Shown: piece by piece, positions 20,043 to 52,680 of the stretch
How positions within the stretch are numbered: position 1 is the first letter of the stretch
Layout: every line of letters begins with the position of its first letter
From: Gammaproteobacteria bacterium
Lineage (GTDB): Bacteria > Pseudomonadota > Gammaproteobacteria > Natronospirales > REEB76
Length of the DNA: 52,680 nt
Reading direction: 5' to 3'
NCBI GenBank assembly: GCA_035690065.1
Contig: DASSKW010000095.1
Span: forward strand, 1 to 52,680
The notes under the pieces: model-generated
Told to the model about the DNA's origin: nothing
The model's database searches: none
The model's input: only the letters and a program-made list of their open reading frames with translations
Program-made: the position numbers and the translations under genes

Positions 20043-20061
20043 CGTCGCAAACTCCAGCTAT

Positions 20062-20532: not shown

Positions 20533-20534
20533 GT

Positions 20535-20909: not shown

Positions 20910-20916
20910 CCTGTGT

Positions 20917-33984: not shown

Positions 33985-33985
33985 T

Positions 33986-36444: not shown

Positions 36445-36513
36445 CGGTTCCAGGGATATCCAGCAAAAACAGGCCGTCAGTGTATCGGTTAAGGCGACCG
36501 GAGAAAACGCGTT

Positions 36514-36975: not shown

Positions 36976-36992
36976 ATCTGCCTCATCCCAGT

Positions 36993-37180: not shown

Positions 37181-38165
37181 GAGCTTCGGAAGAATCGCGT
37201 TGCTCATAGGCACTGACGATACGCTGTACCAATGGATGGCGCACTACATCCGCGGCAGTAAAGAAAGTGAAACTCACGCCTGCCATATCCCGCAATAATT
37301 CGACTGCATCGCGCAACCCGGAGCGCTGGTGCCGGGGGATATCCACCTGGGTGATATCGCCGGTCACCACGGTCCGGGAACCGAAGCCGATACGGGTCAG
37401 GAACATCTTCATCTGCTCAATCGTGGTGTTCTGCGCTTCATCGAGGATGATGAACGCCTCATTCAGGGTTCGTCCACGCATGAAGGCGAGCGGCGCCACT
37501 TCGATGACCCCATGTTCCTGGAGTTTCGTCACCCGCTCGAAACCGAGCATGTCGTAAAGCGCATCGTAGATCGGGCGCAAATAAGGATCCACTTTCTCCG
37601 CCATGCTGCCGGGCAGGAATCCAAGACGTTCACCGGCTTCCACCGCAGGCCGTACCAGCACCAGCCTGCGTACCTGATCGTGATTAAGTGCCGCGACTGC
37701 ACTGGCAACTGCGAGATACGTCTTGCCGGTCCCCGCCGGACCGATGCCGAACGTAAGGTCATGGTCCGCGATATTCTGCAGATAACGGCGTTGATTCAGG
37801 CCCCGGCCGTGGATACGGCCTTCCTTGGTCGCGATGACGATGTCGCCGGCACTTGCTGCCGTACCGTCGGCAGCTTCCGGTGTCGCTGTCATGCCCGATT
37901 GCCGTAATGCAAGATGCACCGTCTCGCGGCGGATGCGCTCATGCGTGGCTGCAGCATAAAGCTGTTTCAGGATCGCAGCGACGGCCTGTATCGCTTTTGC
38001 ATCGCCGATGATGCGAAAGCGATTGCCGCGATTATTGATCTCCACGCCCAGGCCTTGCTCGATCTGGCGCAGATGTTCGTCGAACTGGCCACAGAGGTTG
38101 GCCAACCGCTCGTTATCGGCGGGTTCCAATAGAAGTTCGAGAGAGGCGGGTACGGACTCTGACAA
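37146..38165 (-). CDS. ybeZ: PhoH-like ATPase YbeZ
   Basis: 339-aa ORF with Walker A GPAGTGKTYLAV and FIILDEAQNTT. The last ~12 codons (..APVGGSGDVRRD) are encoded by a REP element. Confidence 0.93.
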   Translation of the reverse strand: MSESVPASLELLLEPADNERLANLCGQFDEHLRQIEQGLGVEINNRGNRFRIIGDAKAIQAVAAILKQLYAAATHERIRRETVHLALRQSGMTATPEAADGTAASAGDIVIATKEGRIHGRGLNQRRYLQNIADHDLTFGIGPAGTGKTYLAVASAVAALNHDQVRRLVLVRPAVEAGERLGFLPGSMAEKVDPYLRPIYDALYDMLGFERVTKLQEHGVIEVAPLAFMRGRTLNEAFIILDEAQNTTIEQMKMFLTRIGFGSRTVVTGDITQVDIPRHQRSGLRDAVELLRDMAGVSFTFFTAADVVRHPLVQRIVSAYEQRDSSEAPVGGSGDVRRD

Positions 38166-38169
38166 AACC

Positions 38170-39543
38170 CTAACCGGAAAGCGTCTGTTGCTGCGAGGAA
38201 AAATCTGTCGTCGCCGTCCGCGTAGCTATCCGTCCACGCAATGAGTTCTGTCTGACGTCGGTGATAACGACATCCACAAAGTGCCCGATGCAGCGGGTAT
38301 CGCCCGGAAAATTCACCCAGCGATTGCATTCCGTCCTGCCCGCCAGTTCGCTGGAATCTTTAGTGGAATGCCGTTCCACCAGCACCCGTTGCGTGGTGCC
38401 CAGCATGCGCTGCATATACTGCTGACCAAAACCGTGGATACGCGCCTGGAGCGCCTCCAGACGCCGCACTTTCTCTTCATGCGATACATCATCTTCGAAC
38501 GATGCGGCCGGTGTCCCCGGACGACGACTGTAGATGAAGCTGAATGCCTGATCGAACCGCATGTCCTCGACCAGTTTCATGGTCGCCTCGAAATCCTTTT
38601 CGGTCTCTCCAGGGAATCCCACGATGATGTCGGTAGACAGACTGATCTCCGGGCGTGCCTGACGCAGTTTCCTTATCTTCGCCTTGTACTCGAGTACTGT
38701 ATGGTTGCGCTTCATGGCGGCCAGGATCCGGTCAGATCCGCTCTGCACCGGCAGGTGCAGATAGTTCGCGAGTTTCGGTATCTCGGCATAGGCCCGGATC
38801 AGGCGATCGCCGAATTCCAGGGGATGCGAGGTGGTGAAACGGATGCGCTCCATACCATCGAGTGCCGCCACATATTCGATCAGAAGTGCAAGATCGGCAA
38901 CTGCGCCATCATGCATGGGCCCGCGATAACCATTTACATTCTGCCCCAGCAGTGTCACTTCCTTGACACCCTGTTCGACCAGTTCCGCGACCTCGGCGAT
39001 CACGTCGTCGAATGGGCGGCTGACTTCCTCGCCACGGGTATAAGGCACCACACAGAACGTACAGTATTTGCTGCAGCCTTCCATGATGGATACGAACGCA
39101 GTCGAGCCTTCTGCACGCGGGGGCGGCAGGTTGTCGAATTTCTCGATCTCGGGAAATGAGATATCCACCACTGACCGATGTGTCCGGCGGGTCTCTTCGA
39201 GCATCTCCGGCAACCGGTGCAGAGTCTGCGGACCAAACACCAGATCCACGAACGGCGCACGCTTGACGATGCCCTCACCCTCCTGGCTGGCGACACATCC
39301 ACCCACGCCTATGACGAGATCAGGGTTCCTCTGCTTGTACTCTCGCCACCAGCCGAGCTGGGAAAACACTTTTTCCTGTGCCTTTTCACGGATGGAACAG
39401 GTATTAAGTAACAGGATATCCGCTTCTTCTGCTATTTCCGTCTGCACGCAATCATGGGATGCCCGTAGTACCTCCACCATCTTGGCAGAGTCATACTCGT
39501 TCATCTGACATCCGAAAGTCTTGACGTGAAGCTTGAGAGACAT
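38170..39543 (-). CDS. miaB: tRNA-i6A37 methylthiotransferase MiaB
   Basis: Contains [16 protein letters not shown] and the radical-SAM motif [20 protein letters not shown] 39543 is preferred. The ORF track begins at GTG 39552. Confidence 0.95.
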
Positions 39544-39616
39544 GGAATACACGTGTTTTGCCAGCCGGTAAGCTTGGCATTTTAACCGCTGGGCACCCTT
39601 CAGGGCGACCCGGGAT

Positions 39617-41545
39617 TCAGTTTTTGACCAGTCTGACTACTTTGTTGGCGGCACCGTTCGCATCAGCGACGGATTGAGCGATCTCGGCGTCCTTACCGGG
39701 CTCGAATTCCGGGACGGTGGCTTTAAGAGCCCGGAATATCTCCTCCAGATCGCGGCCGCCAAGGCTTGTTTCCAGGCGGTGCAACTGCCCGTTCAACCGC
39801 TCCCAGTCTATGGTGCAGCACTCCGCCAGCAATAACTTGGGGTGGGTTGTCGGCTTAAGAGCCTCGCGGGCGTAGAAGAGCTCTTCATGGAGTTTTTCTC
39901 CGGGGCGCAACCCGGTGTAGGCAACCTTGATGTCTCGATCAAGTTTCAACCCACTGAGACGGATCATCTGTTCGGCCAGGTCCCGGATACGGACAGGCTG
40001 GCCCATGTCCAGCACGAATATCTCTCCGCCCCGCCCCATCGCCGCCGCCTGGAGGATCAAGCTGGCCGCCTCGGAGATGGTCATGAAGTAACGCGTGACT
40101 TCAGGATGAGTCACCGTCACCGGGCCTCCGCAGGCGATCTGTTGCTCAAACAGCGGTACTACAGAACCGGTGGACCCAAGTACATTACCGAAACGCGTGG
40201 TGATGAAATGAGCCCCGGCGTGATAACTGAGCCCCTGACAGTAAAGTTCAGCCACACGTTTGGAGGCCCCCATCACACTGACCGGATTGACAGTCTTGTC
40301 GGTGGAGATCAGTACAAAACATTCATTACCATTACGGACAGCAGCATCTGCCAGCACCTTGGTACCGACGACATTGTTCCGCACCCCCTCCAATGCATTC
40401 TCTTCCACGATGGGCACGTGTTTGTAGGCAGCCGCATGAAAGACGATCTGTGGTTTATGCCGGGCGAATAGTTCCTCTACCGCACCGGCATCCTGAACAT
40501 CGCCCAATATGAGTTGCAGACGTGATTCGAGACCCGAGCTATTCAGCTCCTGGCCCAACTTGTAGATGTTGTATTCGCTGTTATCCAGAACGATCAGCTT
40601 ACGCGGATGCCAGCAGAGAAGTTGCCGGCATAACTCCGAACCTATGGAGCCGCCACCGCCGGTCACCAGGATACATTTATCCCTGAAGAAATCACTGATC
40701 GCTTTTGAATCCAGCATCACCGGTTCGCGCCCGAGCAGATCCTCTACAGTCACCGGGCGCAATCTGGATATCTCGACTCGACCGTCTGCCAGTTCTCCCA
40801 GTGAAGGCAGCGTCCGGCAAACCACTTTGGCTTCATTGCACTGCTGCAATATCAGATCCATGACTTCGCGGGAAGCTGACGGGATCGCTATGAGGACTAT
40901 GTTGATTTCATAAGCGGATACCAGACGACGGATCTCCGACAGGTAGCCACGCACCCGAACGCCGTGCACCTCATGACCATGCTTACTGGGATCGTCATCG
41001 ACTAGCGCTACCGGCAAGAAAGGCCCGGAGTTGCGTTTCAGATCGCGAATCAGCAATTCTCCTGCGCGACCTGCCCCCACGATCAGAGCTCGTCCACCGT
41101 GTGTACCAGCATCCTCCAGATCATCCCAACTGTCCTTGAGGATACGATATACCATGCGTCCACCGCCCAGACCGAAACAAAGCAGCAGCGGATACAGCAC
41201 CAATACAGAACGCGGCACACCATCCAGTCTGCCGATCAGAAATGCAGTCAGCACTGTGGCAAGCGCGCCTACCAGCACCGCCTTGATGATGCGCACCAGA
41301 TCCGGGATGGATGCATAACGCCAGATACCGCGATAGCAACCAAAAAACCAGAAGACTAACGCGTGTACGGGTAAAGCGACTGCAACCAGCTCAAACGCAC
41401 CCCGAAGATACGTGGACGGTACGCTGCCCAGGTTGAAACGGATCCAGTAGGCGAACAGGATTGCAGCCGCAACCCACAAAAGATCGTGCGCAAATACTGT
41501 CCAGCGGTTGCGTAACAGCTGCCACCCGTTGCCATCCCTACTCAC
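39617..41545 (-). CDS. membrane-anchored nucleotide-sugar 4,6-dehydratase (WbpM/PglF/CapD family)
   Basis: 642-aa ORF with N-terminal TM helices, followed by [10 protein letters not shown] and [12 protein letters not shown] Rossmann motifs and a CapD-type core. Confidence 0.9.
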
Positions 41546-41557
41546 ACCAAATTCCTT

Positions 41558-42604
41558 TTACTCAAGCGCTCTGTTTTTGAGCAGAGCATTAACCCCCAAA
41601 CCAATCACTGCATAGGCTGCAGCGAGAAAGCCAAGACCCACCCACTGCTGGAGCGGAGCAGCTTTTAATAACAGTAATATCAAGAGGCTACAGGATACCA
41701 TGAGAGCGTACTCCCATTGAACCACCCGCCGGTGGCTCCAGCCGGCTCTTACCAATCTCTGGTAGAAATGCTCCCGATGCGCCTGCCACAGGGCCTCGCG
41801 GCGCAGGGCTCTCCGGAACAGTGTCCAACTCGCATCCACCACAAAGGGAGAAAAGATCACTAATCCCGCCCACCAGGGGAAAAGCCCCCGCCGATCAGCC
41901 ACCATGACGCAAGCCGCCGCCAGAAAGCCGACCGTACCGGAGCCTGCATCTCCCATGAATATGCGTGCCGGAGGAAAATTGAAAAGCAGAAATGCGGCAG
42001 CGGCAGCGCTGATCGTGCTACAGAAAAGCGCGTAACCCAGCCCCCCCGCTGCACCACCGAGGATCGCCATGCTGCCGAAACCGATCACAGTCATGCCGGC
42101 GGCAAAGCCGTCCATACCATCCATGAAGTTGTACAGGTTTGTTACCCATACTATCGCCAAGACACTCAGTACACCTGCCGCAATCGCCGGCAGAGACAGC
42201 GAGATGCCGGGCAACACCAGACGCTCGACAATCGTTCCCGTCAGCACAAGACCGCAGGCAGCCGCGACCTGTACCAGCAACCGCCAATGTGGAACCACAC
42301 CACGCCAGTCATCTACAGCCCCCGTTATCGCCACCAGGAATGAAATTGCAACAACCTTGCCCAACCCGATATCAAACCATCCCGATATCCACATGCATCC
42401 CATACCGGCAAGGATACCCAGCATGATGCCCAACCCGCCCACGCGTGGCACTGGCGAATCGTGCAATGAACGCCGGTTCGGAAAATCCAGCGGAATCCAG
42501 CTAAGGCGACTGTTTGTCAGCAATCTGCAGACCAGTGCCGACACCAGAAATGCCACCACCGGCGTTGCAATCAGGGTGCACAGTTTTGGTAACGTAATAT
42601 CCAC
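41558..42604 (-). CDS. polyprenyl-phosphate HexNAc-1-phosphate transferase (MraY/WecA family, WbpL-like)
   Basis: 348-aa polytopic ORF containing DDWRG and NLYNFMDGMDG motifs. Confidence 0.88.
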   Translation of the reverse strand: MDITLPKLCTLIATPVVAFLVSALVCRLLTNSRLSWIPLDFPNRRSLHDSPVPRVGGLGIMLGILAGMGCMWISGWFDIGLGKVVAISFLVAITGAVDDWRGVVPHWRLLVQVAAACGLVLTGTIVERLVLPGISLSLPAIAAGVLSVLAIVWVTNLYNFMDGMDGFAAGMTVIGFGSMAILGGAAGGLGYALFCSTISAAAAAFLLFNFPPARIFMGDAGSGTVGFLAAACVMVADRRGLFPWWAGLVIFSPFVVDASWTLFRRALRREALWQAHREHFYQRLVRAGWSHRRVVQWEYALMVSCSLLILLLLKAAPLQQWVGLGFLAAAYAVIGLGVNALLKNRALE

Positions 42605-42612
42605 GGCAGGCT

Positions 42613-43482
42613 TCAGTTGCGAGGGTACACGATCCGGAACATGCCCGGCATGAATCCAAAATCGTTGGCGGCCTGAGAATAATCAATCGTCATATCCTGC
42701 TTCAACCGTTCGATAGCGGAAGGTGACACACTACGCCATCTCGGGTGTATGCGTGCAATCCCGAGTAACAATCTCAACAATCCTTCAGGAAGCCGTAAGA
42801 ATCTTGGGGTCTTATCCAGACGTCGAAAGATGTACCGCGCAATCGCTTCAAAATCCAGGCATTCGCCGCCACCCAGGTTATAGGTGTGGGAGAATGTACG
42901 TTCATTTTCGACCACCCGCATGCAGGCATCGGCAAGATCATCGGCATGCAGTGGTTGACGCAGGCCACGCGTCTTGCTGAGCAGAGGGAATACTCCATAT
43001 CGTTTCATGAATCCGGCCATGAGTGCGATATTTTTGTCGCGTACGCCATCATAGACCATAGTCGGTCTCAATAACGTCCACTCGATATTGTTACTCGCGC
43101 AATAGTCAATAAAATTCTCTTCAGCATGTAATTGATCCGCCACCAACCTGCGATCGAATTCATGTTTCGACTTGTTTTTCATGATCACGCTGGTCGTTCC
43201 CAGCGCGACTACCCTCTTGATCGAGGTTTCGTGCAAATTGGAATTCAAGGCAATAAAGTGCGGCAGTGGCGCCAGATGCACGAGTGTAGAAACATCCCGA
43301 TCCAGCACTTCGTGCAGACGGTTCCTGGAAGAATCGAAAACCCGCCAATCCATACCTGGTTCAACTGCGTGCGCGTAACGGGACAGGGCCAGGACACGGT
43401 AACCAGTCTGCTGTGCGCGCGGGAGCAGATAATGACCAACCAGGCTGGTCGCGCCGATCACGGCCATGCTCTGCCGGATCAT
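42613..43482 (-). CDS. NAD-dependent epimerase/dehydratase-family (atypical SDR) protein
   Basis: Trimmed to ATG 43482 (ATGA overlap with the GT2 stop), giving MIRQSMAVIGATSLVGHYLL, a glycine-rich Rossmann start. 289 aa. Confidence 0.7.
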   Translation of the reverse strand: MIRQSMAVIGATSLVGHYLLPRAQQTGYRVLALSRYAHAVEPGMDWRVFDSSRNRLHEVLDRDVSTLVHLAPLPHFIALNSNLHETSIKRVVALGTTSVIMKNKSKHEFDRRLVADQLHAEENFIDYCASNNIEWTLLRPTMVYDGVRDKNIALMAGFMKRYGVFPLLSKTRGLRQPLHADDLADACMRVVENERTFSHTYNLGGGECLDFEAIARYIFRRLDKTPRFLRLPEGLLRLLLGIARIHPRWRSVSPSAIERLKQDMTIDYSQAANDFGFMPGMFRIVYPRN

Positions 43483-44453
43483 GTTGCCGTGCCTGCAACT
43501 CTGCGCAACCACATGGAGAAGATCCGCGGCGATGCCATCAGTGCGATCCCCGCAAAACGGCTCGACACTCCACACCAGACCAGCCAACGTACCCATGCAT
43601 GTCTGCAGGGTGGATAGTGCTGCCTGAAAAACCGCCACATACCGCGGTGTTTGTGCCATTCAACAAACAATGGTCTTGAGCGGCTGGAGACGCCTTTTTC
43701 GTGAACTGCGCGGGCCTGCGGCACAAACCAGACACCGTATCCGGCAGCCGCAGCACGGGCGCAAATATCGATATCCTCGAAATGCAGGAAATACCCTTCA
43801 TCCATGCCCCGAAGCCGCCTGAAAACATCTGCTTTTATTGCCATAAAAGCCCCTGAGACGGCTTCCACCCTGACTGGTCGATCCGGCAAGGGTTCACCTG
43901 TCTGATTGAATCCGGTGAGAAGCCATCGGAACAGCACCGACTCGCCCAGACCTGAAACTGGTGTGGGTAAACGACGGCGGCATCCTCGCTGCTCGGTGCC
44001 GTCCGGGTTCACAACCAGGGCGCCAACCACGCCAGCTTCCGGCAAATCATTCGCACGCCGGATCAATTCCGACACCGCCCCCGGATCCAGCAGGCAGTCC
44101 GGGTTTACCAACACCAGATATGAGGATGCGAGGTTATTCGCCCCAATATTTACTGCGCGTGCAAAACCAAGGTTTTCTCGGGTTTCAATTATTCGGATTC
44201 TATTATCACTGACTTTTTGTCTGAGGATATCCAGGCTGGCATCCTGAGAGCCATTATCAACGACGACGATTTCCCTGACGGATTCATCATTCAATAACGA
44301 ACCGACGGCCATAGTCAGATATTCGGCGGAATTGAAATTGACAAGCACCACGGCCGCGCTTTGCATATCGGACCCAGGATTATGATTCAGGTTATTCATG
44401 ATCCAGTCAAAAAGTTCATCCGGATTGATAGCCCATGCTCGCGGCAACTTCAC
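43479..44453 (-). CDS. family 2 glycosyltransferase
   Basis: Contains VVLVNFNSAEYLTMAVGSLL, VVDNGSQDAS, LVNPDCLL and FLHFEDIDICAR motifs. The exact start is uncertain (ATG 44453, 44399 or 44366). Confidence 0.85.
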   Translation of the reverse strand: MKLPRAWAINPDELFDWIMNNLNHNPGSDMQSAAVVLVNFNSAEYLTMAVGSLLNDESVREIVVVDNGSQDASLDILRQKVSDNRIRIIETRENLGFARAVNIGANNLASSYLVLVNPDCLLDPGAVSELIRRANDLPEAGVVGALVVNPDGTEQRGCRRRLPTPVSGLGESVLFRWLLTGFNQTGEPLPDRPVRVEAVSGAFMAIKADVFRRLRGMDEGYFLHFEDIDICARAAAAGYGVWFVPQARAVHEKGVSSRSRPLFVEWHKHRGMWRFFRQHYPPCRHAWVRWLVWCGVSSRFAGIALMASPRIFSMWLRRVAGTAT

Positions 44454-44527
44454 TCTGGATATTATTATTCAGCTACGCGCCTTGCGATTATTACATGCGC
44501 TGTATCTTCCAACACACAGGGCACAAT

Positions 44528-45967
44528 CTACCGCGCTACGTTTAGATGGTATTTCTTGAGTATTTCCATACCATGCGCGCAAAGTTTAGCATTCGGACAT
44601 TCCCATCTGGGCAATACGTCAGTCGTCTGGCGGCCCGCCACGATTTCTTTCAACAGTCCGGTCACTTTGGCATTACTACGTACCTGGTAGTGAGCAAGCT
44701 TCACCGTGTAATTAAGGTTGGCGATCTCGATTGCAAGGAGCAACGTCATTATGGATACCAACGGAACCCTGCGCCAGAAGCGCGCAGGTCCTGCGACCCA
44801 GTCGAGCCCGATGATCCATGCAACCCCCACCATCCACAGATGTGAATCGAATACATAACGTGGCACGATGGTGCCATGCAATGCACTATGATCACTTCCG
44901 AAACGACCTATCAAGACCTCCAATACGAATATCCCGGAATACAGTATCAACAGGAGCGGTACCCATGTGACCCGCCAGTGACGGGCGGCAAAGTAACGCC
45001 ATAACGCCCAAATCAATACTGCGCTGCCCAATACTGCAAGAATATTTTCCAGAATCGCGTGATGCCACGCTACCGCATCGATGTTGAGCATACTGTTGGC
45101 GAGCATGCCGTATATATATGCAATGGCGCCCAGCGGGTTATCGAGTACATCCAGAACTCTATACACCAGACCCCCACCGTTGCTGCGGTTGGAATCAAGC
45201 AAAACAAGATATATACCTATTGCAAAGATACCAACCATTATTAAAGGCAGAGCATGACGCCATATACGGGACCGTATTCCGGGATCAAGAAAGATCGCGA
45301 GCAGGGTCACGATGACACAAGCCCCAATCAGTGCCGGGCTTCGTGCGCCGGAAAACCCCCACACACACAATAGAAGGATGACCACCAACCAGAGCAATCC
45401 GGCACGAGTCACACCGGACGTCAGGGCGCGAGAGAAGCCACAGAGGAATGCGATTTGCAGCAGCATCTCGCCGAACCCCCCCAGGGCCAATAAAGAATAA
45501 ACATAGTTTGCCCATTGATTGAAGCTCATCAGGATCACGCCCGTCGTGAGCAGTGTGAAACTGACGAAAATACTGCGCGCACCATTAAAGCTGGTCGCCA
45601 TCTCCCGTAAAACGAGAACGACGGTCGCGGCGAGTAACGCAAGTCCGGCAAATATCTCGACCAATAGATTCAGGCCAAGGTACTTCGCATTGAAAAGAAA
45701 AAGCAGCTTGTAGCCGGGTTTTACGTGCTCCGAATGACTGCTCCAGATATCCTGCCAGTCGAGTGTACCGGAAAGATAGTTGTCCACCATATCCAGAAAT
45801 CGCCACTGGTCACGTGATATGAAACTTGCGTCGATGGACCAAGCATACCAAGACACCAGTATGAACCAGAACATCAATGGCGAGATTACAATCAGAAGCG
45901 TTTTAACATTGCCGGAAATGAGACGCTGCAAAGAGTTACTCAAGACGGTTGGTTTCATTACCATCAT
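44528..45967 (-). CDS. polytopic inner-membrane protein, function unknown (candidate GT-C glycosyltransferase or polymerase)
   Basis: 479-aa ORF with at least 10 hydrophobic segments. It has an early acidic loop (RDQWRFLDMVDNY) and a C-terminal soluble tail with ECPNAKLC. The DNA is AT-rich. An ATGA overlap joins it to the wecE stop. Confidence 0.6.
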   Translation of the reverse strand: MMVMKPTVLSNSLQRLISGNVKTLLIVISPLMFWFILVSWYAWSIDASFISRDQWRFLDMVDNYLSGTLDWQDIWSSHSEHVKPGYKLLFLFNAKYLGLNLLVEIFAGLALLAATVVLVLREMATSFNGARSIFVSFTLLTTGVILMSFNQWANYVYSLLALGGFGEMLLQIAFLCGFSRALTSGVTRAGLLWLVVILLLCVWGFSGARSPALIGACVIVTLLAIFLDPGIRSRIWRHALPLIMVGIFAIGIYLVLLDSNRSNGGGLVYRVLDVLDNPLGAIAYIYGMLANSMLNIDAVAWHHAILENILAVLGSAVLIWALWRYFAARHWRVTWVPLLLILYSGIFVLEVLIGRFGSDHSALHGTIVPRYVFDSHLWMVGVAWIIGLDWVAGPARFWRRVPLVSIMTLLLAIEIANLNYTVKLAHYQVRSNAKVTGLLKEIVAGRQTTDVLPRWECPNAKLCAHGMEILKKYHLNVAR

Positions 45968-47097
45968 TGCTCAAAAAAGCGAAACAACAGCGCAGCAATA
46001 TTGTCCACCATCGCCGGCGTCATGTCCGACCACAAAGGCAAGCGAACCAGCCGTTCTGCCAAATCATCGGTATTCTGGAGTGACCCATGCGTTCGACCAA
46101 ATCGTCGTCCGGCTGGAGAACTGTGTAGTGGAACATAATGGTGTACAGCACCGATCCCGTTCTGTTTCATGAAATCAAGCAGTCTGCGCGCATCTTCCGG
46201 TCTCCTGGTCAAGACAAAAAATATGTGTGCGTTATGCCCTACTTCCGGGGGGATCATAGGAGGTTTCAGCAAACCGCTATCGAATAGTGGTTTGAGTTTC
46301 TGCTGGTACAGGTTCCATATCTTCAGGCGGCGTGCCGTGATCTCATGTGCCGCATCAAGCTGAGACATCAGAAAGGCAGCCACCAGTTCCGATGGCAGAA
46401 ACGAGGAGCCAACGTCCACCCAGGTATATTTATCCACCTCGCCGCGGAAGAACTTGGAACGGTTCGTGCCCTTCTCCCAGATTATCTCTGCGCGCTCCAT
46501 TAATTCATCATCATTAATCAGAAGCGCGCCTCCCTCACCTGAAACTATATTTTTTGTCTCGTGAAAACTGATCGCAGCGAGCTGACCAAATGTCCCGGCA
46601 TGACGCCCGCGATAGGTCGATAACAGGGACTGGGCAGCATCCTCCACTACGGTTGCCTTGCATTCCGCAGCAATTTCCACGATCTCATCCATGCGGCATG
46701 GAACACCAGCATAATGTACCGGTGCAATTGCCTTGGTACGCGAAGTAACTGCCGCCGCAATCGCCTCCGGCGTGACATTGAGATTTACCGGATCCACGTC
46801 CACAAATATCGGGATGGCACCACGTAACACGAATGCATTAGCAGTGGAAACAAACGTGAACGAAGGCATGATAACTTCATCGCCTGGGCCAGCATTGCTG
46901 AGGATCGCACCCATCTCCAGCGCTGCGGTACAGGAATGAGTAAGCAGCGCCTTGCGACAGCCCAGCGTCTCCTCCAACCACTCCTGGCAACGACGGGTGA
47001 ACTCACCGTTACCCATCAGCCGGCCCTTCTCCATGGCCTGGCGGATATAGTCCAGTTCGTGACCCGTAAGTGCAGGCTGGGTAAAACGGATACTCAT
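45964..47097 (-). CDS. wecE: dTDP-4-amino-4,6-dideoxygalactose transaminase (WecE/RffA-type DegT family)
   Basis: 377-aa ORF, collinear from memory with E. coli WecE. Shared segments are FTRRCQEWLEE, DEVIMPSFTFVSTANAFVLRGA, VVEDAAQ, SFHETKN, EKGTNRS.FFRGEVDKYTW.D.GSS and LVRLPLW. Confidence 0.88.
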   Translation of the reverse strand: MSIRFTQPALTGHELDYIRQAMEKGRLMGNGEFTRRCQEWLEETLGCRKALLTHSCTAALEMGAILSNAGPGDEVIMPSFTFVSTANAFVLRGAIPIFVDVDPVNLNVTPEAIAAAVTSRTKAIAPVHYAGVPCRMDEIVEIAAECKATVVEDAAQSLLSTYRGRHAGTFGQLAAISFHETKNIVSGEGGALLINDDELMERAEIIWEKGTNRSKFFRGEVDKYTWVDVGSSFLPSELVAAFLMSQLDAAHEITARRLKIWNLYQQKLKPLFDSGLLKPPMIPPEVGHNAHIFFVLTRRPEDARRLLDFMKQNGIGAVHHYVPLHSSPAGRRFGRTHGSLQNTDDLAERLVRLPLWSDMTPAMVDNIAALLFRFFEQ

Positions 47098-47112
47098 CGA
47101 TAACTCCAGAGG

Positions 47113-47427
47113 CTAATTGAATCCGTACAGAATAATACCCACGAGGATGAGCATGATACCCGGTAAAACCCTGGGGGGTATTCGCTCACCCAGGAAATAA
47201 TGTGACATGCCAAGTACCAGCACATGGGTTGCTGCCGTAGCCATGTACACGAACCCGAGACTGAGTCCCCGCAAGGCAAAGAATGTGGTGACCGGTACTG
47301 CACCGAACAACAGGATCGAGAACCCCAAATCCGCACGCTTGTGGCTACGGTAATAATGTTTGAAAAGCACCATGCCCGTCGCCGTGCATAACAGCGAAAT
47401 CGTCAATGCCAGGCTGGACAGCATCAT
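47113..47427 (-). CDS. 4-TM DMT/SMR-like protein, ArnE/ArnF-like flippase subunit (A)
   Basis: 104-aa hydrophobic ORF containing ALRGLSLGFVYMATAATHVLVLGMSHYFLGERI and ILVGIILY. An ATGA overlap joins it to the upstream acetyltransferase stop. Confidence 0.65.
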   Translation of the reverse strand: MMLSSLALTISLLCTATGMVLFKHYYRSHKRADLGFSILLFGAVPVTTFFALRGLSLGFVYMATAATHVLVLGMSHYFLGERIPPRVLPGIMLILVGIILYGFN

Positions 47428-47960
47428 GAAAGATCACGCTTCCCGATCTGTCGTGACGGGACCCCGCCCACTATTACAGCGGGTGGTATATCTGTGGTTA
47501 CCACTGCACCAGCGGCCACCACTGCGCCTTGGCCGATGGATACACCCTGAAGAATGATGGCACCGGCACCGATCCAGACGCCGTCCTCGACGCGGATCGA
47601 GGCCCCCACATCCGGCAAATCCGGGTGCGCGGGATCATGGCCTGCAGCATGAAATCGTACATTCGGGGCGATGCGCACATTGTTGCCGATGGTGATGCGA
47701 GCGTCGCCCCCATAAAGTCCCGGATAGAACTCAACGCCCCGGTTGATGCTTACGTTCGAACCTATCACCACCAGCCACGGGTATTTGAAATACACCCGGT
47801 AATCGAAATGTACCCCCTGGCCGATCTTTCCAAGCAAGAGCTTGAAACCCAACCAGCGAATCGGCGGGGGCATTATCGCAAGTATGTGCTGCACGATGTT
47901 CAGAGCATACACATACCAATCGTTGACGATGCGCTTGCGATGATTGCCACTGAATAACAT
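47424..47960 (-). CDS. left-handed beta-helix (hexapeptide) acetyltransferase, WcaF-like
   Basis: 178-aa ORF. Hexapeptide repeats run from IGSNVSINRGVEF through IGNNVRIAPNVRF to VEDGVWIGAGAIILQGVSIGQGAVVAAGAVVTTDIP. Confidence 0.85.
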   Translation of the reverse strand: MLFSGNHRKRIVNDWYVYALNIVQHILAIMPPPIRWLGFKLLLGKIGQGVHFDYRVYFKYPWLVVIGSNVSINRGVEFYPGLYGGDARITIGNNVRIAPNVRFHAAGHDPAHPDLPDVGASIRVEDGVWIGAGAIILQGVSIGQGAVVAAGAVVTTDIPPAVIVGGVPSRQIGKRDLS

Positions 47961-47962
47961 AT

Positions 47963-48325
47963 CTACTCTCTACTCTGGATCGTCAACCACATCACACCTG
48001 CGGTAATGAACAAGCCACCAAGCCATTGACCGACTGCTATCTTTTCTCCATACAAGGCGGCCACCGCAATCAGCAGAGGGAAGAATACCGCAGACATAGG
48101 ATAGGTCACTGACAACGGCCACCGTCGGTGAGCATAGCCCCATAGAAGGAATCTCATCCCCTGCACGCCGAACGCAATGGCAATGAACACCACCGGGAAG
48201 ATGAAGCCCATGTTTACCGTCCGCGTTGCCTGTTTCAGCAAGATGGCTCCCAGGAGCTGCAGCAATACAGTGGCCGTAACCACGGCCAGCGCTTTCACGG
48301 TAGCGTTCAGATTCAGCTCCGCCAC
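47963..48325 (-). CDS. 4-TM DMT/SMR-like protein, ArnE/ArnF-like flippase subunit (B)
   Basis: 120-aa ORF containing RRWPLSVTYPMSAVFFPLLIAVAALYGEKIAVGQWLGGLFITAGVMWL, which resembles the PLSVAYP...GE...QW.G..LI..GV signature of ArnE/F and EamA half-transporters. Confidence 0.7.
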   Translation of the reverse strand: MAELNLNATVKALAVVTATVLLQLLGAILLKQATRTVNMGFIFPVVFIAIAFGVQGMRFLLWGYAHRRWPLSVTYPMSAVFFPLLIAVAALYGEKIAVGQWLGGLFITAGVMWLTIQSRE

Positions 48326-49047
48326 AGAGAGAGGTCCAACGTATACTGCATTGCCAGGGCAGCATTATATGGTGCAAAGTGGGCAGTCAAGGCGGCGATC
48401 GTCTTGCTTGATACAGATCGTTCACGCGGCACACTATTGAACTTCTCGTCGGTGACGGGAGATGCCATCGGGGTGAGCCCCAGGAATCGACACAAATCAT
48501 CCCATACCTGAACATCCCGCACGAACCGCTCAGTCTGCAATACCAGCAGCTTGTCCTTCCCGACCAGGTTGGCGTATTTCGTGAGAAAATTCAGATAATG
48601 CCCTCTTTCCAGATAGGCAAAAGGCGAGGCGGAAAGTCCCGCCACCTGTTGCAGATCCTGTCTGGTCGGGTCCAGCGCCTGGTCCGGCGAGCGCTTCTCG
48701 AAGCCATGCTGAACACTGAACCAGTAATTTGATATCGCACGTTCCACTGGATCACGCAGCATAGCCACACAACGTGCCCCCGGGAAGATGTTCGCAATCC
48801 GCTCTGCAACTGCCTCATATTCTATATATGAAGTGCTCTTCTCACCGCGCATGACCGTATCAGGAAGTCCGGAGAAATATCGGACTTCATAATCATTCAT
48901 ACTGGTATCCGCGTGCATATTCAGCAGATATTTTGGCTCCGGGCGTATGGGCTTGGCAAAATTTATTTCAGGGTGCAGATCCAGACTGTTTGCCAGCAGA
49001 GTGGTCCCACTGCGTTGAGCCCCGATGATAAACATGTAGCGCTTCAT
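48313..49047 (-). CDS. PAPS-dependent sulfotransferase family protein
   Basis: 244-aa ORF with a 5'-PSB loop (FIIGAQRSGTTLL) and a 3'-PB-like motif (MLRDPVERAISNYW). An ATGA overlap joins it to the upstream GT2 stop. Confidence 0.8.
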   Translation of the reverse strand: MKRYMFIIGAQRSGTTLLANSLDLHPEINFAKPIRPEPKYLLNMHADTSMNDYEVRYFSGLPDTVMRGEKSTSYIEYEAVAERIANIFPGARCVAMLRDPVERAISNYWFSVQHGFEKRSPDQALDPTRQDLQQVAGLSASPFAYLERGHYLNFLTKYANLVGKDKLLVLQTERFVRDVQVWDDLCRFLGLTPMASPVTDEKFNSVPRERSVSSKTIAALTAHFAPYNAALAMQYTLDLSLWRS

Positions 49048-49970
49048 TGAGCGCCATCCACTGATTCCTTTATCTGATACGGCGCGCCGCCACTGACCTG
49101 GGCAAGCAGACGTACGATATATTCTCCCAAAATACCGATCATCAGCATCAACATGCCATTGAAGAATGCCAGCAATACAACGAGAGTTGTCCAGCCGGGA
49201 ACTTGTGCACTATGGACAAAACTCTTGATAAGCACCGCAACACCGAAGATAAAGCTTGCAAACGACACTAACAAGCCGACAGCCATCACGAAGCGTAACG
49301 GGAAGGACGAATAGTTAAACAGGATAGTGGCTACCAGCTTGGCGATACGCAACATGCTGTAGCTGCTTTTGCCGACTCTACGCGACTGATGATCCACATC
49401 AACATTGGCTGGTGAAGCTGAAAACATCAGGGCCAGACCGGGGATATAGGGGAAAGGCGATTGGTATTCACATATACGCCTGACGACGTCCTTGTGCAGG
49501 AGCCGGAAGTTGCTCAATACCAGGCCTTCCGGTTTATCGAAGATGCGCCCATTCAACCAATTCACTACTTTCGAGCCCCAGCGCCGGTAAGAAGCATGCA
49601 TCTTGGTGCGGAAATTCCCCAGTACCAGGTCATGACCCTCGGCCGCTTTGCGAATCAGGTGCGCAATCTCTTCAGGGGGATTCTGCAGGTCATCGTCCAT
49701 CGTCACCAGCCAATCGCCGGTAGCGTAGCGGAATCCGCACAAGTTTGCGGCATGCTGGCCATAGTTACGCAGCAGGTTTATCGCCTTGATGCGACTGTCG
49801 CTACGCGCCAATCTGCTGATTATATTCCAGCTGCCATCGGCGCTCGCGTCATTGACAAGGATGATCTCGAATTCGAGTCCGCTGTTTACGAAAAATGCAC
49901 GCGTACGTTCGACGGTCTCTCCGACAATCTGCTCGCTGTTATAAACTGGAATGACGACACTGTATTTCAT
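49044..49970 (-). CDS. polyprenyl-phosphate glycosyltransferase (GT2, ArnC/GtrB/DPM1-like)
   Basis: Trimmed to ATG 49970, giving MKYSVVIPVYNSE. It contains ILVNDASADGS, MDDDLQNPPEEI and two C-terminal TM helices with MIGILGEYIVRLL. That architecture is characteristic of ArnC/GtrB. Confidence 0.85.
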   Translation of the reverse strand: MKYSVVIPVYNSEQIVGETVERTRAFFVNSGLEFEIILVNDASADGSWNIISRLARSDSRIKAINLLRNYGQHAANLCGFRYATGDWLVTMDDDLQNPPEEIAHLIRKAAEGHDLVLGNFRTKMHASYRRWGSKVVNWLNGRIFDKPEGLVLSNFRLLHKDVVRRICEYQSPFPYIPGLALMFSASPANVDVDHQSRRVGKSSYSMLRIAKLVATILFNYSSFPLRFVMAVGLLVSFASFIFGVAVLIKSFVHSAQVPGWTTLVVLLAFFNGMLMLMIGILGEYIVRLLAQVSGGAPYQIKESVDGAQ

Positions 49971-49993
49971 TATACCGATTCTCTGATATTGCT

Positions 49994-50007
49994 CCCCATG
50001 CATGGGG
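49994..50007. promoter_or_regulatory. perfect 14-bp palindrome in the divergent promoter region
   Basis: ccccatgcatgggg lies 24 nt upstream of the ArnC-like start. It sits within the 369-bp AT-rich spacer shared with the divergent 50340 gene. Confidence 0.25.
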
Positions 50008-50339
50008 CTGCGATGAATATCTGGCGCCTCCTGAGACCGTATAATCTTACTATTTCGCCTCCGACTATCCCATATTTGTCGGGCATCTTTGGGCATATTT
50101 TTATGCTGATATCAGTGCGTAACGTCCCGGGGCTCCTCTGCCATGTTCGATTGAAAGCGGATATGCTGCTGATGCTGACCGGTTCAGCCATGACAGATCT
50201 GGCCCCGTCTGGAAAGCGCCAGGCGCATGGAATCGACAAGCCAGTACCTGCACCTGATTGCCTGTCCCCTGCTACAATCGGCCCACGGGGCTCGATGCCG
50301 GATTTGTACAGATTCCAACAGTTTTCAAACTAATACCTT

Positions 50340-52094
50340 ATGTTCTCCAAGCAATTATCCGAATCACTCTCAACAGGCAGACACGTATTACTGCGGATAC
50401 GTGTCTTAATATCAGATTGGAAGAACCTGATACACCCATACATATTGTTCGCTTTGGTAGCGCTGATCGTCTGGCTCCCGGAAGGATTCAATGTCGGACC
50501 GGTCTTTGACGGCTGGATACAGCTGAACAAGTTCCTGTCAGATGGCTCTCTGCTGAGAACCGGGAATATCCGTGCGTACGCGTCCCTGCCGATGATGCTG
50601 GCGATGTATATAACGCCACACAGTTTTCACGGATGGCAATTTACCTTGCTGCTCTTTGCCATCATTCGTGGCATTGTCATATACGAGATCATCAACCGTG
50701 TCTTGCCGGGGCGGCGTATTTTCGCCGTTGCTTGCGGCCTGATCGCTTTATTTCATCCAGCCGATAATTCCTTCTTCTGGCTTGGCAATACCGGTGCACA
50801 ATTCGGATTCACTATTGCGCTATCCGCGTGCCTCTCTGCCCTGTTGTATATCCAGACGACAAGACGAGAATATCTGGCGCTGACCTTCCTGCTGCAGATA
50901 CTTGCCAGCCTCACCTATTCTGGCCACATACCGATGATGTTTGCGTTTATCATCGGCCTCTGGATTATCCACGGAGTGGCGGGGCATGACGCAGATATCA
51001 AACAATTGATTAAAGTTGCGGTCTTTCCTGTTTTCTTCATGCTATATCAGCTATCTCTGGCTTTGAAAGGGAGTGGGCGCGATGGACATGTCGCCGATAT
51101 CCACATTTCCGGGATATTGGCGGGCTACGGGCATGAAGCTATTCTCTTTGTGAAAACGCTCATTGGCTTGCTTGCATCTTTCAGATACGAATATCTTCTA
51201 TTGGGCCTTATCCCCGCTTTGTATGCGTTGATATTTCTGTGCAGATATCCGAATAAATCCGATCCTTCACCAGCTCGAAATCCAGTCAATCTTCGCTTGA
51301 GCATCACCCTGGGTGTCGGATTGTTGTTTATGGCAATTATTTGTTATCTGCCCTATTCCGTCTCTACGGTGAGGTTCGGTAATAACAGGCAATTGCTTGG
51401 TGCAGGCATTTTCTTGTACATGCTGCTTATGGCGCCAATCTTCATGCCCGTCCCTTCCGGTAATCGGATGCGCTATTTCCAGGGCGTCCTGCTCGCCTTG
51501 CTGGCGATCTTGATAGTCGGAGCGGGCATGAAAGGTCGTCGGGTGTGGGTCGACGCATATCGTCGACAGGAGCAACTGCTCAGTGGGATAGCGAAGGCAG
51601 TACCAGTCCCCAGATCGGGCACGACGATCATCGTGAACCTGAGAGACCACAAACAAGCCCGTTCAGTAGCCGGATTATTTAATCGTCCGCTCGTCTTTTC
51701 AGCTGCTTTGCGGATGATGTATGCAGATAACAGCCTGAATGGAGAGTTTTCAAGGCCCGGCAATTACTCAAATCTTTTCACGGTCCGGAATGGAGTTCTT
51801 ATTGGTAACCGTGGTTTGAAAAAGCGTGGATCCTTTGCAGTGCCATTATCGAATACCCTCCTGATGAGCTATGGAAAGAACAAGACGATAGCAGTCATTG
51901 AGGAACCCGAGCTGCGTGAAATCACGCATAGCGCAACGCCGTTATCGGATTATAAACCGATATGGGATCCGGAATCTGATAGCGAGCACACGTCTGTGTG
52001 TACCATGCTTGAAAACAGATTTCGCCCCTCATACTGTAAGATCCGGCATTACGGTAAAAATGACAACCCAGATCAGATTAAATCTCTCCCATAG
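50340..52094 (+). CDS. polytopic membrane protein with a C-terminal periplasmic domain (candidate GT-C glycosyltransferase)
   Basis: 584-aa ORF. The first ~400 aa carry at least 10 hydrophobic segments, followed by a soluble tail of ~180 aa containing AALRMMYADNSLNGEF and CTMLENRFRPSYC. The DNA is AT-rich. It is divergent from the glycan operon. Confidence 0.65.
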   Translation: MFSKQLSESLSTGRHVLLRIRVLISDWKNLIHPYILFALVALIVWLPEGFNVGPVFDGWIQLNKFLSDGSLLRTGNIRAYASLPMMLAMYITPHSFHGWQFTLLLFAIIRGIVIYEIINRVLPGRRIFAVACGLIALFHPADNSFFWLGNTGAQFGFTIALSACLSALLYIQTTRREYLALTFLLQILASLTYSGHIPMMFAFIIGLWIIHGVAGHDADIKQLIKVAVFPVFFMLYQLSLALKGSGRDGHVADIHISGILAGYGHEAILFVKTLIGLLASFRYEYLLLGLIPALYALIFLCRYPNKSDPSPARNPVNLRLSITLGVGLLFMAIICYLPYSVSTVRFGNNRQLLGAGIFLYMLLMAPIFMPVPSGNRMRYFQGVLLALLAILIVGAGMKGRRVWVDAYRRQEQLLSGIAKAVPVPRSGTTIIVNLRDHKQARSVAGLFNRPLVFSAALRMMYADNSLNGEFSRPGNYSNLFTVRNGVLIGNRGLKKRGSFAVPLSNTLLMSYGKNKTIAVIEEPELREITHSATPLSDYKPIWDPESDSEHTSVCTMLENRFRPSYCKIRHYGKNDNPDQIKSLP

Positions 52095-52153
52095 GCATCA
52101 TCGAACCGCACAATATCATCCTTACCGGGATACCCTCCTTTCTGCGCCTCAGT

Positions 52154-52680
52154 CTAGAGGACGGAAGGTATGCCTTCAGCATGATGTACGCCTGAATGAC
52201 AATACGCCGGCCTGTGGTCGACCTCCAGCATACTGCAAGCGATGCTATTGTGTGGGCCCGTATCCCTGAGTTTCTCCGGATCGTAAGCCGTCGAGATATC
52301 CTGTACTTCGATCTGCTTCTGCAACCACACCTTGTTAAATACGTGCACTGATTGATTTGTTACATAGCCCATCACAATCAGACGGTCATAGCTCGCGAAT
52401 ACCTTGTTATCGCCATGATGTTTGCGGCCAAAGAACAGATTGGTCTGGACGCCATCCGCCCCAAAGTGGACCCTGTGTTTGCCCGGGGCCTTGATGAAAC
52501 CGGCTTCTATACTATCGTCCTGGTACATAAAGCGTAGCGCCGCAGTCAACGCCCCTTCGCGGTTTGCAAATCCAGGCACGCTTTCTATCTGCTCAGGCTG
52601 CATTTGTATCAGGATGAAACTGCCTGATGCCGGATTAGGAACAGCTGTAGCGACAGCCGCCAGCAAAGACTCTGCAGCAT
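52154..52680 (-). CDS. 3' part (partial, runs off the window) of a paralog of the 50340..52094 protein
   Basis: The frame stays open to nt 52680. The tail contains TAALRFMYQDDSIEAGF and CSMLEVDHRPAYC, collinear with the C-terminal domain of the convergent 584-aa protein. Confidence 0.6.
   Translation of the reverse strand, partial: AAESLLAAVATAVPNPASGSFILIQMQPEQIESVPGFANREGALTAALRFMYQDDSIEAGFIKAPGKHRVHFGADGVQTNLFFGRKHHGDNKVFASYDRLIVMGYVTNQSVHVFNKVWLQKQIEVQDISTAYDPEKLRDTGPHNSIACSMLEVDHRPAYCHSGVHHAEGIPSVL

Follow-up and report, generated by a model that had tools for sequence, protein, structure and literature searches.

A sulfotransferase gene set among genes that resemble those for loading, flipping and transferring a lipid-carried amino sugar raises the question of what such a locus makes and where its product goes. 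The locus in question occupies positions 44528-52680 of contig DASSKW010000095.1 (assembly GCA_035690065.1), of which 52,680 nt were analysed and are referred to here as the window. Its minus strand carries a cassette of seven genes (44528-49970) for a GT2 glycosyltransferase, a sulfotransferase, a protein with four transmembrane (TM) helices (4-TM protein B), a left-handed beta-helix (LbH) acetyltransferase, a second such small protein (4-TM protein A), an aminotransferase and a 479-amino-acid polytopic protein. The original prediction, made from the sequence without database searches, was of a pathway parallel to the Arn and Gtr systems. Follow-up analysis makes it reasonably probable that the cassette encodes a three-component system for extracytoplasmic glycosylation, to which enzymes that tailor the donor have been added, and that it delivers sulfated, sometimes acetylated 4-amino-4,6-dideoxy-D-galactose (Fuc4N).

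Proposed pathway

The direct observations are the assignment of the proteins to families, the GT-C fold predicted for the 479-amino-acid protein, the conservation of synteny and the exchange of flippase and GT-C genes as modules. From these we infer every chemical step of this pathway, whether sulfation precedes or follows lipid transfer, the topology and the acceptor. The aminotransferase, a WecE, would convert dTDP-4-keto-6-deoxy-D-glucose, made by RmlA and RmlB encoded outside the window, into dTDP-Fuc4N. The ArnC-like GT2 would load Fuc4N onto undecaprenyl phosphate (Und-P) at the cytoplasmic face of the membrane. The sulfotransferase would add sulfate from 3'-phosphoadenosine-5'-phosphosulfate (PAPS) in the cytoplasm, on either the nucleotide sugar or the lipid-linked sugar and at either a hydroxyl or the 4-amino group, and a WcaF/LacA-type acetyltransferase would add an acetyl group in some cassettes, including that of the window. 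The ArnE/ArnF-like 4-TM pair would flip the lipid-linked sugar. In the periplasm, the 479-amino-acid GT-C enzyme would transfer it to an envelope glycan, likeliest an undecaprenyl pyrophosphate (Und-PP)-linked O-polysaccharide or the lipopolysaccharide (LPS) core, whose synthesis the adjacent WbpM/WbpL-type genes would initiate. Paralogues of a 584-amino-acid polytopic protein encoded beside the cassette may serve further acceptor sites.

Aminotransferase and glycosyltransferase

The aminotransferase was predicted to be of WecE type and is, as judged by its alignments, a true WecE orthologue. It exceeds both curated NCBIfam cutoffs (NF008687, 559.7 bits against 375; TIGR02379, 535.6 bits against 434.85) and aligns end to end with Escherichia coli WecE (PDB 4piw, 2.9e-128), whereas it is only 33% identical to ArnB. 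Its predicted product should be dTDP-Fuc4N.

The GT2 protein matches Pfam Glycos_transf_2 (2.5e-32). Its best NCBIfam model is ArnC (4e-56 over the full length, 190 bits against a cutoff of 529), and its best matches in the PDB are ArnC (2.3e-49), then GtrB (2.6e-36) and dolichol-phosphate mannose synthase (DPMS). Its identity to E. coli ArnC is 34% in an alignment of 307 amino acids that includes both C-terminal TM helices, placed by hydropathy at residues 230-248 and 263-281. By the NCBIfam and PDB matches and the TM helices, the protein groups with polyprenyl-phosphate transferases and not with cytoplasmic O-unit glycosyltransferases, in keeping with the ArnC/GtrB-type assignment originally made. 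It thus has the characteristics of the membrane-anchored polyprenyl-phosphate GT2 (GtrB/ArnC/DPMS family) of three-component systems.

WecE is best known from the biosynthesis of enterobacterial common antigen (ECA), and a WecA/WbpL-type initiating enzyme and another GT2 are encoded directly downstream of the cassette. Both would fit a conventional ECA-like or O-unit cluster in which WecE feeds an ordinary glycosyltransferase, the large proteins are Wzy, Wzx or a ligase, and the 4-TM proteins are an unrelated exporter. The membrane-anchored ArnC/GtrB architecture of the GT2 argues against such a cluster. Moreover, no WecD-type N-acetyltransferase, WecF (GT56) or member of a Wzx or Wzy family was found among the open reading frames (ORFs) scanned in the cassette or its flanks, where WecE is the one member of this ECA set present. 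Together with the structural evidence on the large proteins given below, this makes the conventional cluster very improbable.

Sulfotransferase and acetyltransferase

The family assignment of the sulfotransferase was confirmed by matches to Pfam Sulfotransfer_3 (1e-15) and Sulfotransfer_1 (2e-7). Its nearest structure in the PDB is a bacterial structural-genomics sulfotransferase (3rnl, 3e-18), followed by heparan 3-O- and N-sulfotransferases (about 1e-7 to 1e-8). All eight orthologues compared keep the motifs GAQRS(G/A)TT, RPEPK, EKSTSY and LRDPxxRAxSNY without change. The PAPS motifs are therefore intact, and sequence comparison gives the protein the 5'-phosphosulfate-binding (5'-PSB) and 3'-phosphate-binding (3'-PB) motifs and the fold of a PAPS-dependent sulfotransferase. 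To our knowledge, PAPS is confined to the cytoplasm, which means that an exported glycan could receive sulfate only by way of a pre-sulfated sugar flipped on its lipid carrier.

With the sulfotransferase as query, metagenomes from soil, lakes, sediments and oceans yielded 156 loci, of which 80 were kept and 57 had enough upstream DNA to be read. In 51 of these 57, the end of a co-oriented ArnC-like GT2 gene is no more than 200 nt from the start of the sulfotransferase gene. Of the 31 loci that have at least 3 kb of downstream sequence, 25 contain WecE. This near-invariant adjacency to the GT2 suggests that sulfation belongs to the donor pathway. The GT2-sulfotransferase-WecE core may make Und-P-Fuc4N-sulfate, possibly as an N-sulfated sulfamate, a proposal to which we give at best an even chance.

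Alternatively, the sulfotransferase may work outside the donor pathway on another cytoplasmic intermediate, either a lipid or the non-reducing end of an ABC-transporter-type O-polysaccharide, where sulfate would act as a terminator, and plain Fuc4N or Fuc4NAc would be flipped. Polymer sulfation does seem to occur in related bacteria, as locus L006, a distant relative of the window's, has a polysaccharide cluster (13426-21407) with Wzm/Wzt-like export genes, a 1116-amino-acid multidomain glycosyltransferase, a WecB-like epimerase and a second, different sulfotransferase. Surface-glycan sulfation may thus be common in the L006 lineage. In addition, locus L012 encodes WecE, an ArnC-like GT2, a 479-family protein and the closest homologue of the 584 family without a sulfotransferase, and the PDB matches do not define a substrate. 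However, the association with the ArnC-like GT2, and mostly with WecE, holds in very different environments and includes loci without polymer genes, and the sulfotransferase gene of the window overlaps the start or stop codons of both its neighbours. A sulfotransferase separate from the donor pathway is therefore considered decidedly unlikely.

The LbH acetyltransferase noted earlier is present. It matches Pfam Hexapep (1.4e-14) and the NCBIfam WcaF family (1.4e-25) and LacA (2e-21), and its PDB matches are LacA (9e-20) and Maa (4e-19), with sugar N-acetyltransferases far weaker. The enzyme is thus of the O-acetyltransferase type. Its gene is missing in about half of the related cassettes (L004, L005, L007, L008, L011 and L013), and it is an optional member, not a counterpart of the N-acylation enzyme of the Arn pathway.

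The 4-TM pair

The two 4-TM proteins are the candidates for a flippase. Protein B matches the NCBIfam models for ArnE (7e-8) and ArnF (2e-3), both under cutoff, and is 28% identical to E. coli ArnE over 95 amino acids (8e-5); its weak match to Pfam EamA (0.015) is like that of E. coli ArnF (0.0096). Protein A matches EamA (2.8e-6) and NCBIfam ArnE (1.2e-3) and is 31% identical to E. coli ArnE over 65 amino acids. When 4-TM proteins from eight copies of the cassette were scanned together with the controls ArnE and ArnF of E. coli, EamA was the only model that the cassette proteins matched, protein A doing so more strongly and protein B weakly. The controls show the same asymmetry with this model (3e-10 for ArnE and 0.0096 for ArnF). 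Two EamA-type 4-TM genes are found in every cassette, and a flippase role is predicted for them from their sequences.

Drug-type pumps of the small multidrug resistance (SMR) family would have spoken against the original prediction. Pfam Multi_Drug_Res (PF00893), searched at E<=10, matched none of the eight copies but did match the E. coli ArnE control, and no glutamate is present in the TM1 segments of the 4-TM proteins. The drug-type (EmrE family) reading was ruled out on these two grounds, EamA and the ArnE/ArnF models of NCBIfam being the families matched instead.

The large membrane proteins

The 479-amino-acid protein has no sequence match in Pfam, NCBIfam or the PDB, a profile search of the PDB included, and only 24 relatives were found among 5.8 billion proteins. 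An AlphaFold2 model built from the alignment of those 24 relatives has a mean pLDDT of 88.3 and a pTM of 0.90. The top Foldseek match of this model in the PDB is ArnT (5f15; E 1.2e-3, probability 1.00, template-modelling score 0.44), and ranks 1-10 are all GT-C enzymes, with ArnT followed by AftB, STT3 of oligosaccharyltransferase, and PglB. In GT-C enzymes the catalytic acid sits in the loop right after TM1. R52-D53-Q54-W55 are invariant in the 479 family and lie in a net-acidic loop right after TM1, so that D53 would provide the acidic residue in the predicted first extracytoplasmic loop. A cysteine pair near the C-terminus (C457/C463) is also invariant. On the basis of the model, the GT-C fold is accepted for the 479-amino-acid protein, which appears to found an unannotated GT-C-fold family and is a putative periplasmic transferase.

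No Wzx, Wzy or ligase (WaaL) structure is among the 50 best Foldseek matches of this model, and neither the 479- nor the 584-amino-acid protein has a Pfam match to Polysacc_synt or Wzy_C. The module also recurs in loci without repeat-unit genes. All of these findings argue against an ECA-like or O-unit cluster, and the Wzx/Wzy and ECA readings were rejected on the Pfam and Foldseek evidence. The original claim that the large membrane proteins are GT-C enzymes and not Wzx or Wzy was upheld for the 479-amino-acid protein; the 584-amino-acid protein only leans that way.

The 584-amino-acid protein, with about 10 TM helices and a soluble tail of about 185 amino acids by hydropathy, has no Pfam match itself, and a profile search of the PDB with its family gave nothing. 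An exhaustive HMMER search put the family at 407 representatives; a word-indexed homology search with the family alignment gave no further members. Among 65 members scanned, three match Glucos_trans_II (2e-5), one matches PMT_2 and one DUF6056, all of which we take to be GT-C families, and none matches a Wzy or Wzx model. Residues G49, W59, R78, P140, D142 and R350 are nearly invariant. An AlphaFold2 model from a three-sequence alignment reached a pLDDT of only 45, and Foldseek on that poor model gave no informative match (STT3 probability 0.72, PimE 0.63). A further paralogue is cut by the end of the window; its product is 32% identical to residues 411-566 of the 584-amino-acid protein and matches the family profile at 1.7e-35. 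Homologues adjoin the cassette in L006 and the 479-family gene in L012. Beside other cassettes is a family of about 560 amino acids (here the trio family), which hhalign aligns with the first 180 residues of the 584 family at a probability of 94.6%. The proteins of the 584 and trio families are probable GT-C enzymes.

Recurrence and modularity of the cassette

The seven-gene cassette was found in the same order in L002/L003, L004/L005, L006/L009, L007, L008, L011, L013, L015 and L016, representing at least seven independent loci. It occurs in two contexts, either beside folK-folB-tsaD or, as in the window, beside miaB and WbpM/WbpL-type genes. Identity to the window is 60-82% for WecE and GT2, 42-67% for the sulfotransferase and 33-55% for the GT-C protein. 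Since the same order recurs in loci whose GT-C proteins have diverged to this extent, it is conserved far beyond chance. The gene-neighbourhood check that had been called for thus shows repeated co-occurrence of the gene set in uncultured Gammaproteobacteria. The 479 family is present in only 4 of 185,579 species-representative genomes, all of them metagenome-assembled genomes (MAGs) of uncultured proteobacteria. Many cassettes have a short-chain dehydrogenase/reductase (SDR), Methyltransf_28 or FA_hydroxylase gene beside them, and these were rejected as core members because none has a homologue in the window. An FA_hydroxylase-family (di-iron lipid hydroxylase) gene and a gene for a 249-amino-acid SDR regularly flank the folK-side cassettes on their upstream side (L004/L005/L011).

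The GT2-sulfotransferase-WecE core is far more widespread than the exact cassette, which is rare. The flippase candidate in these wider loci is either a 4-TM pair or an LPG_synthase_TM protein, and the neighbouring polytopic genes encode divergent 479-family proteins, 584- or trio-family proteins, PMT_2 or DUF2079 proteins, or unknowns. For example, a TIGR00374/LPG_synthase_TM flippase-like protein occupies the place of the 4-TM pair in L012. The core is joined to PMT_2-type GT-C genes in L019 and L028, with an LPG_synthase_TM flippase-like protein also in L019, and to DUF2079 proteins in L027 and L035. Such non-orthologous replacement in fixed slots fits the prediction of a system composed of donor synthase, flippase and GT-C enzyme. 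The stretches 2184-15388 of L019 and 3501-5522 of L028 combine the three core genes with LPG_synthase_TM (MprF-type), PMT_2 (one fused to TPR repeats), methyltransferase, Wzy_C and asparagine-synthase-like amidotransferase genes.

Variation is also seen at the level of strains. In a comparison of L004 with L011, identity is 100% for the trio genes, 85-96% for the other cassette genes and 79-91% for the flanking housekeeping genes, whereas it is only 58% for the 479-family gene. The L005 haplotype is without the trio genes, although L004 and L005 are 99.5% identical across the cassette. Gtr-type systems are known for such a combination of unrelated families in fixed functional slots with a GT-C gene that is hypervariable next to conserved donor genes, and the variability of the GT-C gene looks antigenic. 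L004, L005 and L011 are three haplotypes of one locus, from one Joint Genome Institute (JGI) metagenome and one MAG assembly. The latter contains both L005 and L011, which means that the bin mixes strains or carries a duplication.

A second lipid-carrier module lies at 1-5271 of L012, beside the sulfotransferase-free set, and is like WxcK-N of Xanthomonas, with a DegT aminotransferase, a GT2, an FdtA 3,4-ketoisomerase and GtrA fused to GNAT, in addition to a trio-family protein. The site in L012 seems to collect modules for Und-P-linked amino sugars. Vorholter et al. are said to have described WxcL as GtrB-like in 2001.

The acceptor

Directly downstream of the cassette and in the same direction are genes for a second GT2, an epimerase/reductase-like protein, a WecA/WbpL-type GT4 and a WbpM/PglF-type dehydratase (39617-44453), which may build the acceptor glycan. 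Homologues of these four genes also flank the cassette in the distant L006/L009, where they are divergently oriented, and Wzy_C ligase-type genes are near the module in L019 and L028. The flanking WbpM/WbpL-type genes in the window and L006, the ABC-transporter polysaccharide genes of L006 and these Wzy_C genes, together with the antigenic-looking variability, favour an O-polysaccharide or core acceptor, and LPS O-antigen or core is tentatively proposed, with a likelihood a little short of even. The ORF of the epimerase-like protein and that of the GT2 upstream of it share 181 nt. Because its L006 homologue was called at 295 amino acids, its real start is probably well inside the ORF.

The cassette could instead serve an Arn-like charge modification in which the 479-amino-acid enzyme puts Fuc4N, sulfated or zwitterionic, on lipid A phosphates or on Kdo or heptose and so adjusts the charge of the cell surface and its resistance to cationic peptides. 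No structure matches the 479-amino-acid model better than ArnT, and among characterised systems the components of Arn are the ones most similar to the GT2, the 4-TM pair and the aminotransferase. Most cassettes lie amid housekeeping genes without O-antigen genes, and the L012 variant, having no sulfate to add, would deliver a free amine like 4-amino-4-deoxy-L-arabinose (Ara4N). However, sulfate would cancel the positive charge on which Arn function depends, and up to three extra paralogous transferases, along with replacement of GT-C alleles, resemble antigenic diversification. Genes for O-unit initiation and export surround the cassette in the window and in L006, and a PmrA/PhoP-type regulator and an ArnA/ArnD analogue are absent. 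Modification of lipid A or the inner core is on this evidence unlikely, but a serious rival given how many cassettes lie away from polysaccharide genes.

Several observations weigh against delivery of sulfated Fuc4N to an O-polysaccharide or core by a GT-C enzyme. Most cassette loci, those on the folK side, have no polysaccharide genes adjacent, which leaves the O-antigen acceptor weakly supported, and all cassette hosts are uncultured. The ArnE/ArnF-like scores of the 4-TM proteins fall under the curated cutoffs, and no rml genes (rmlA, rmlB) are present in the window. The Foldseek E-values of the 479-amino-acid model are marginal (1.2e-3 at the top, with template-modelling scores of 0.40-0.46), and sequence and profile comparisons, including hhalign runs with the 584 family and with E. 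coli ArnT, gave no link between the 479 family and any GT-C family. The GT-C status of the 584 family derives from a few weak Pfam matches and a poor model. Finally, the sulfotransferase might act on a different substrate.

Relationship to known systems

Three-component systems include Gtr of Shigella and Salmonella, Gml of the Klebsiella O2 antigen and the pentofuranose system of C. youngae, and their flippase class is interchangeable, being of MATE type or of SMR/GtrA types (PMC11127046). The cassette likewise would run from an Und-P-sugar synthase through a small or other flippase to a GT-C enzyme acting after export, and it shares with Gtr the conserved donor genes and a fast-evolving, type-specific GT-C gene. 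The 3 of 65 members of the 584 family that match Pfam Glucos_trans_II do so to the GtrII model. In contrast to the plain glucose, galactose or ribofuranose of Gtr-type systems, the cassette donor would be an amino-dideoxyhexose from a dedicated aminotransferase, sulfated or acetylated. Its flippase would be an ArnE/F-like pair and not GtrA, its GT-C families are new and no phage association was seen.

The Arn pathway has in common with the cassette a DegT-family 4-aminotransferase, an Und-P-loading GT2, an EamA-type 4-TM pair and a GT-C enzyme, for which ArnT is the best structural match. The sugar nucleotides differ, being dTDP-Fuc4N made by WecE in the cassette and UDP-Ara4N in Arn. The cassette has a sulfotransferase and an optional O-acetyltransferase-type enzyme, and neither the cassette nor the window ORFs scanned contain the domains of ArnA (UDP-glucuronic acid decarboxylase/formyltransferase) or the deformylase ArnD. 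Scores against the Arn equivalog models fall well under their cutoffs (ArnB 206 against 631, ArnC 190 against 529, ArnE 33 and 19 against 92, ArnF 19 against 99). The 479-amino-acid protein resembles E. coli ArnT (GT83, PMT_2) at the level of fold only and has no Pfam, BLAST or profile similarity to it. The cassette thus works like Arn or Gtr and belongs to neither.

Rhizobium offers a precedent for donor sharing. RgtE makes dodecaprenyl phosphate-linked galacturonic acid (Dod-P-GalA), and the GT-C enzymes RgtA-D add galacturonic acid at several sites of the core and lipid A. One lipid-linked monosaccharide donor thus serves several paralogous GT-C transferases, and a similar arrangement would account for the presence beside the cassette of one to three additional polytopic proteins, each of about 560 amino acids. 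The Rgt system differs in its sugar and its GT-C families and is without sulfation.

The nearest precedent for an amino-dideoxyhexose that is made by a dTDP-sugar aminotransferase and used as a side branch is wxc region 3 of Xanthomonas campestris. Mutants in wxcK or in wxcN, which encodes a small membrane protein, lose the N-acetylfucosamine (FucNAc) side branch and keep the rhamnan main chain (PMC4878081). That region differs from the cassette in its 3-amino sugar, FdtA-type isomerase, N-acetylation and GtrA-type protein, and in having neither a sulfotransferase nor WecE. The Fuc4NAc branch of ECA shares an orthologous aminotransferase with the cassette; the ECA sugar is added to Und-PP-linked lipid II in the cytoplasm, whereas the cassette sugar would go to Und-P through the ArnC-like enzyme.

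Full-text literature searches found no characterised equivalent of the cassette, no sulfotransferase embedded in such a system and no Und-P-linked Fuc4N donor. A study of Actinoplanes that uses related terms treats sulfotransferases and a GtrA system as separate clusters. Since relatives were found only in uncultured organisms and the literature searches gave no match, the gene set does not appear to correspond to a characterised O-antigen or ECA-like cluster. The general type of machinery is known; the sugar chemistry and the transfer enzymes are apparently undescribed. The original reading of a parallel Arn/Gtr-like pathway is thus supported, and none of the outcomes that it had named as fatal (a cytoplasmic O-unit GT2, drug-type pumps, large proteins modelling as Wzx or Wzy, or a known cluster) was observed, the result on the large proteins being clear for the 479-amino-acid protein only.

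Layout of the locus and its surroundings

The ORF map gives the seven cassette genes in the order first proposed (Table 1). The coordinates agree with the 4-nt overlaps reported at 49044-49047, 47424-47427 and 45964-45967, the 13-nt overlap at 48313-48325 and the 2-nt gap at 47961-47962. Hydropathy likewise agrees with the TM layout, giving two C-terminal helices in the GT2, four in each small protein and about 11 in the 479-amino-acid protein. Two junctions depend on the choice of start codon. The 13-nt overlap hinges on a GTG start for 4-TM protein B, and the overlap at 45964-45967 hinges on the first ATG of the 479-amino-acid gene, for which the existing call starts at M4. Orthologues of the GT2 align only from about residue 43 of its ORF, and the existing gene call is of 308 amino acids. 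Because both begin at M43, the real start is probably there, which gives the gene the extent listed in Table 1 and leaves a divergent gap of about 370 nt.

Two polytopic genes had been described across a divergent promoter. One is complete and encodes the 584-amino-acid protein, but the second is convergent with it, only about 174 C-terminal soluble codons are visible, and a promoter scan found no sigma-70-like consensus site in the gap at 49971-50339. The earlier estimate of 35-40% GC was wrong. The region 44528-52680 has 51.6% GC, compared with 59.2% for 1-31999 and 56.8% for 34000-44527, and only 4.4% of the 60-nt lines in it have 40% GC or less. The dip is modest and the notion of an AT-rich island was dropped.

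Table 1. Genes and intervals of the cassette and its flanks in the window
Feature	Positions	Strand	Remarks
GT2 polyprenyl-phosphate glycosyltransferase, ArnC/GtrB architecture	49044-49970	minus	308 amino acids from M43 (probable start); ORF reaches 50096
PAPS-type sulfotransferase, soluble	48313-49047	minus	Pfam, PDB, motifs; overlaps both neighbours
4-TM protein B, ArnF-like half of putative heterodimeric flippase	47963-48325	minus	120 amino acids
LbH acetyltransferase, LacA/Maa/WcaF O-acetyltransferase type	47424-47960	minus	Optional cassette member
4-TM protein A, ArnE-like half of putative flippase	47113-47427	minus	104 amino acids
WecE-type dTDP-4-keto-6-deoxy-D-glucose 4-aminotransferase	45964-47097	minus	DegT family
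479-amino-acid polytopic protein, putative periplasmic transferase	44528-45967	minus	GT-C-fold model
Divergent intergenic gap, cassette to 584-amino-acid gene	49971-50339		About 370 nt; 243 nt with the long GT2 ORF
584-amino-acid polytopic protein, probable additional GT-C-type transferase	50340-52094	plus	Soluble C-terminal domain of about 185 amino acids
Second 584-family paralogue, C-terminal part	52154-52680	minus	Cut by window end; convergent with the 584-amino-acid gene
Downstream GT2	43479-44453	minus	Pfam, NCBIfam
Epimerase/reductase-like protein	42613-43659	minus	Pfam, NCBIfam
WecA/WbpL-type GT4	41558-42604	minus	Pfam, NCBIfam
WbpM/PglF-type dehydratase	39617-41545	minus	Pfam, NCBIfam

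The rest of the window is Gram-negative housekeeping DNA and includes leuS, lptE, lnt, corC, phoH, miaB, yhdP, rng and a resistance-nodulation-division (RND) pump. The PhoH encoded there clusters with proteins from MAGs of Gammaproteobacteria, and the host is an uncultured gammaproteobacterium of soil type. Scans of the window for tRNA genes and Rfam families found none. Between lnt and leuS is a low-GC island (47-48% compared with about 59%) with a 594-amino-acid ORF on the minus strand (32239-34023) that has a Wzy_C (O-antigen-ligase-type) domain; its product could be a ligase or polymerase for the cassette-modified glycan. An ORF for an AbiEii-type nucleotidyltransferase toxin on the plus strand (9835-10602) overlaps an ORF of 228 amino acids without a Pfam match (10599-11285), and the two are a possible type IV toxin-antitoxin or abortive-infection pair (9835-11285) amid housekeeping genes. 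Near the start of the window (193-3354, plus strand) is a gene for a 1053-amino-acid protein with DUF11 repeats, which is probably a large surface or secreted protein.

Biological significance

If the proposed pathway is correct, the cassette would make the first sulfated lipid-linked monosaccharide donor in bacteria, as far as literature searches show. A sulfated, optionally acetylated 4-amino-4,6-dideoxyhexose on Und-P would be a new donor chemistry among the few periplasmic glycan-modification systems and would provide a route for sulfating envelope glycans after export. At least one GT-C family without a sequence relative in Pfam or the PDB would be involved, and several new GT-C families would serve the module. 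Heterologous expression is feasible because E. coli supplies dTDP-4-keto-6-deoxyglucose, PAPS and Und-P. As the three core genes are common in environmental metagenomes, the system would reach beyond one uncultured organism. Sulfated surface glycans affect charge, recognition by phages and predators, and metal binding, so the module may be one of the factors behind surface diversity among soil and aquatic bacteria.

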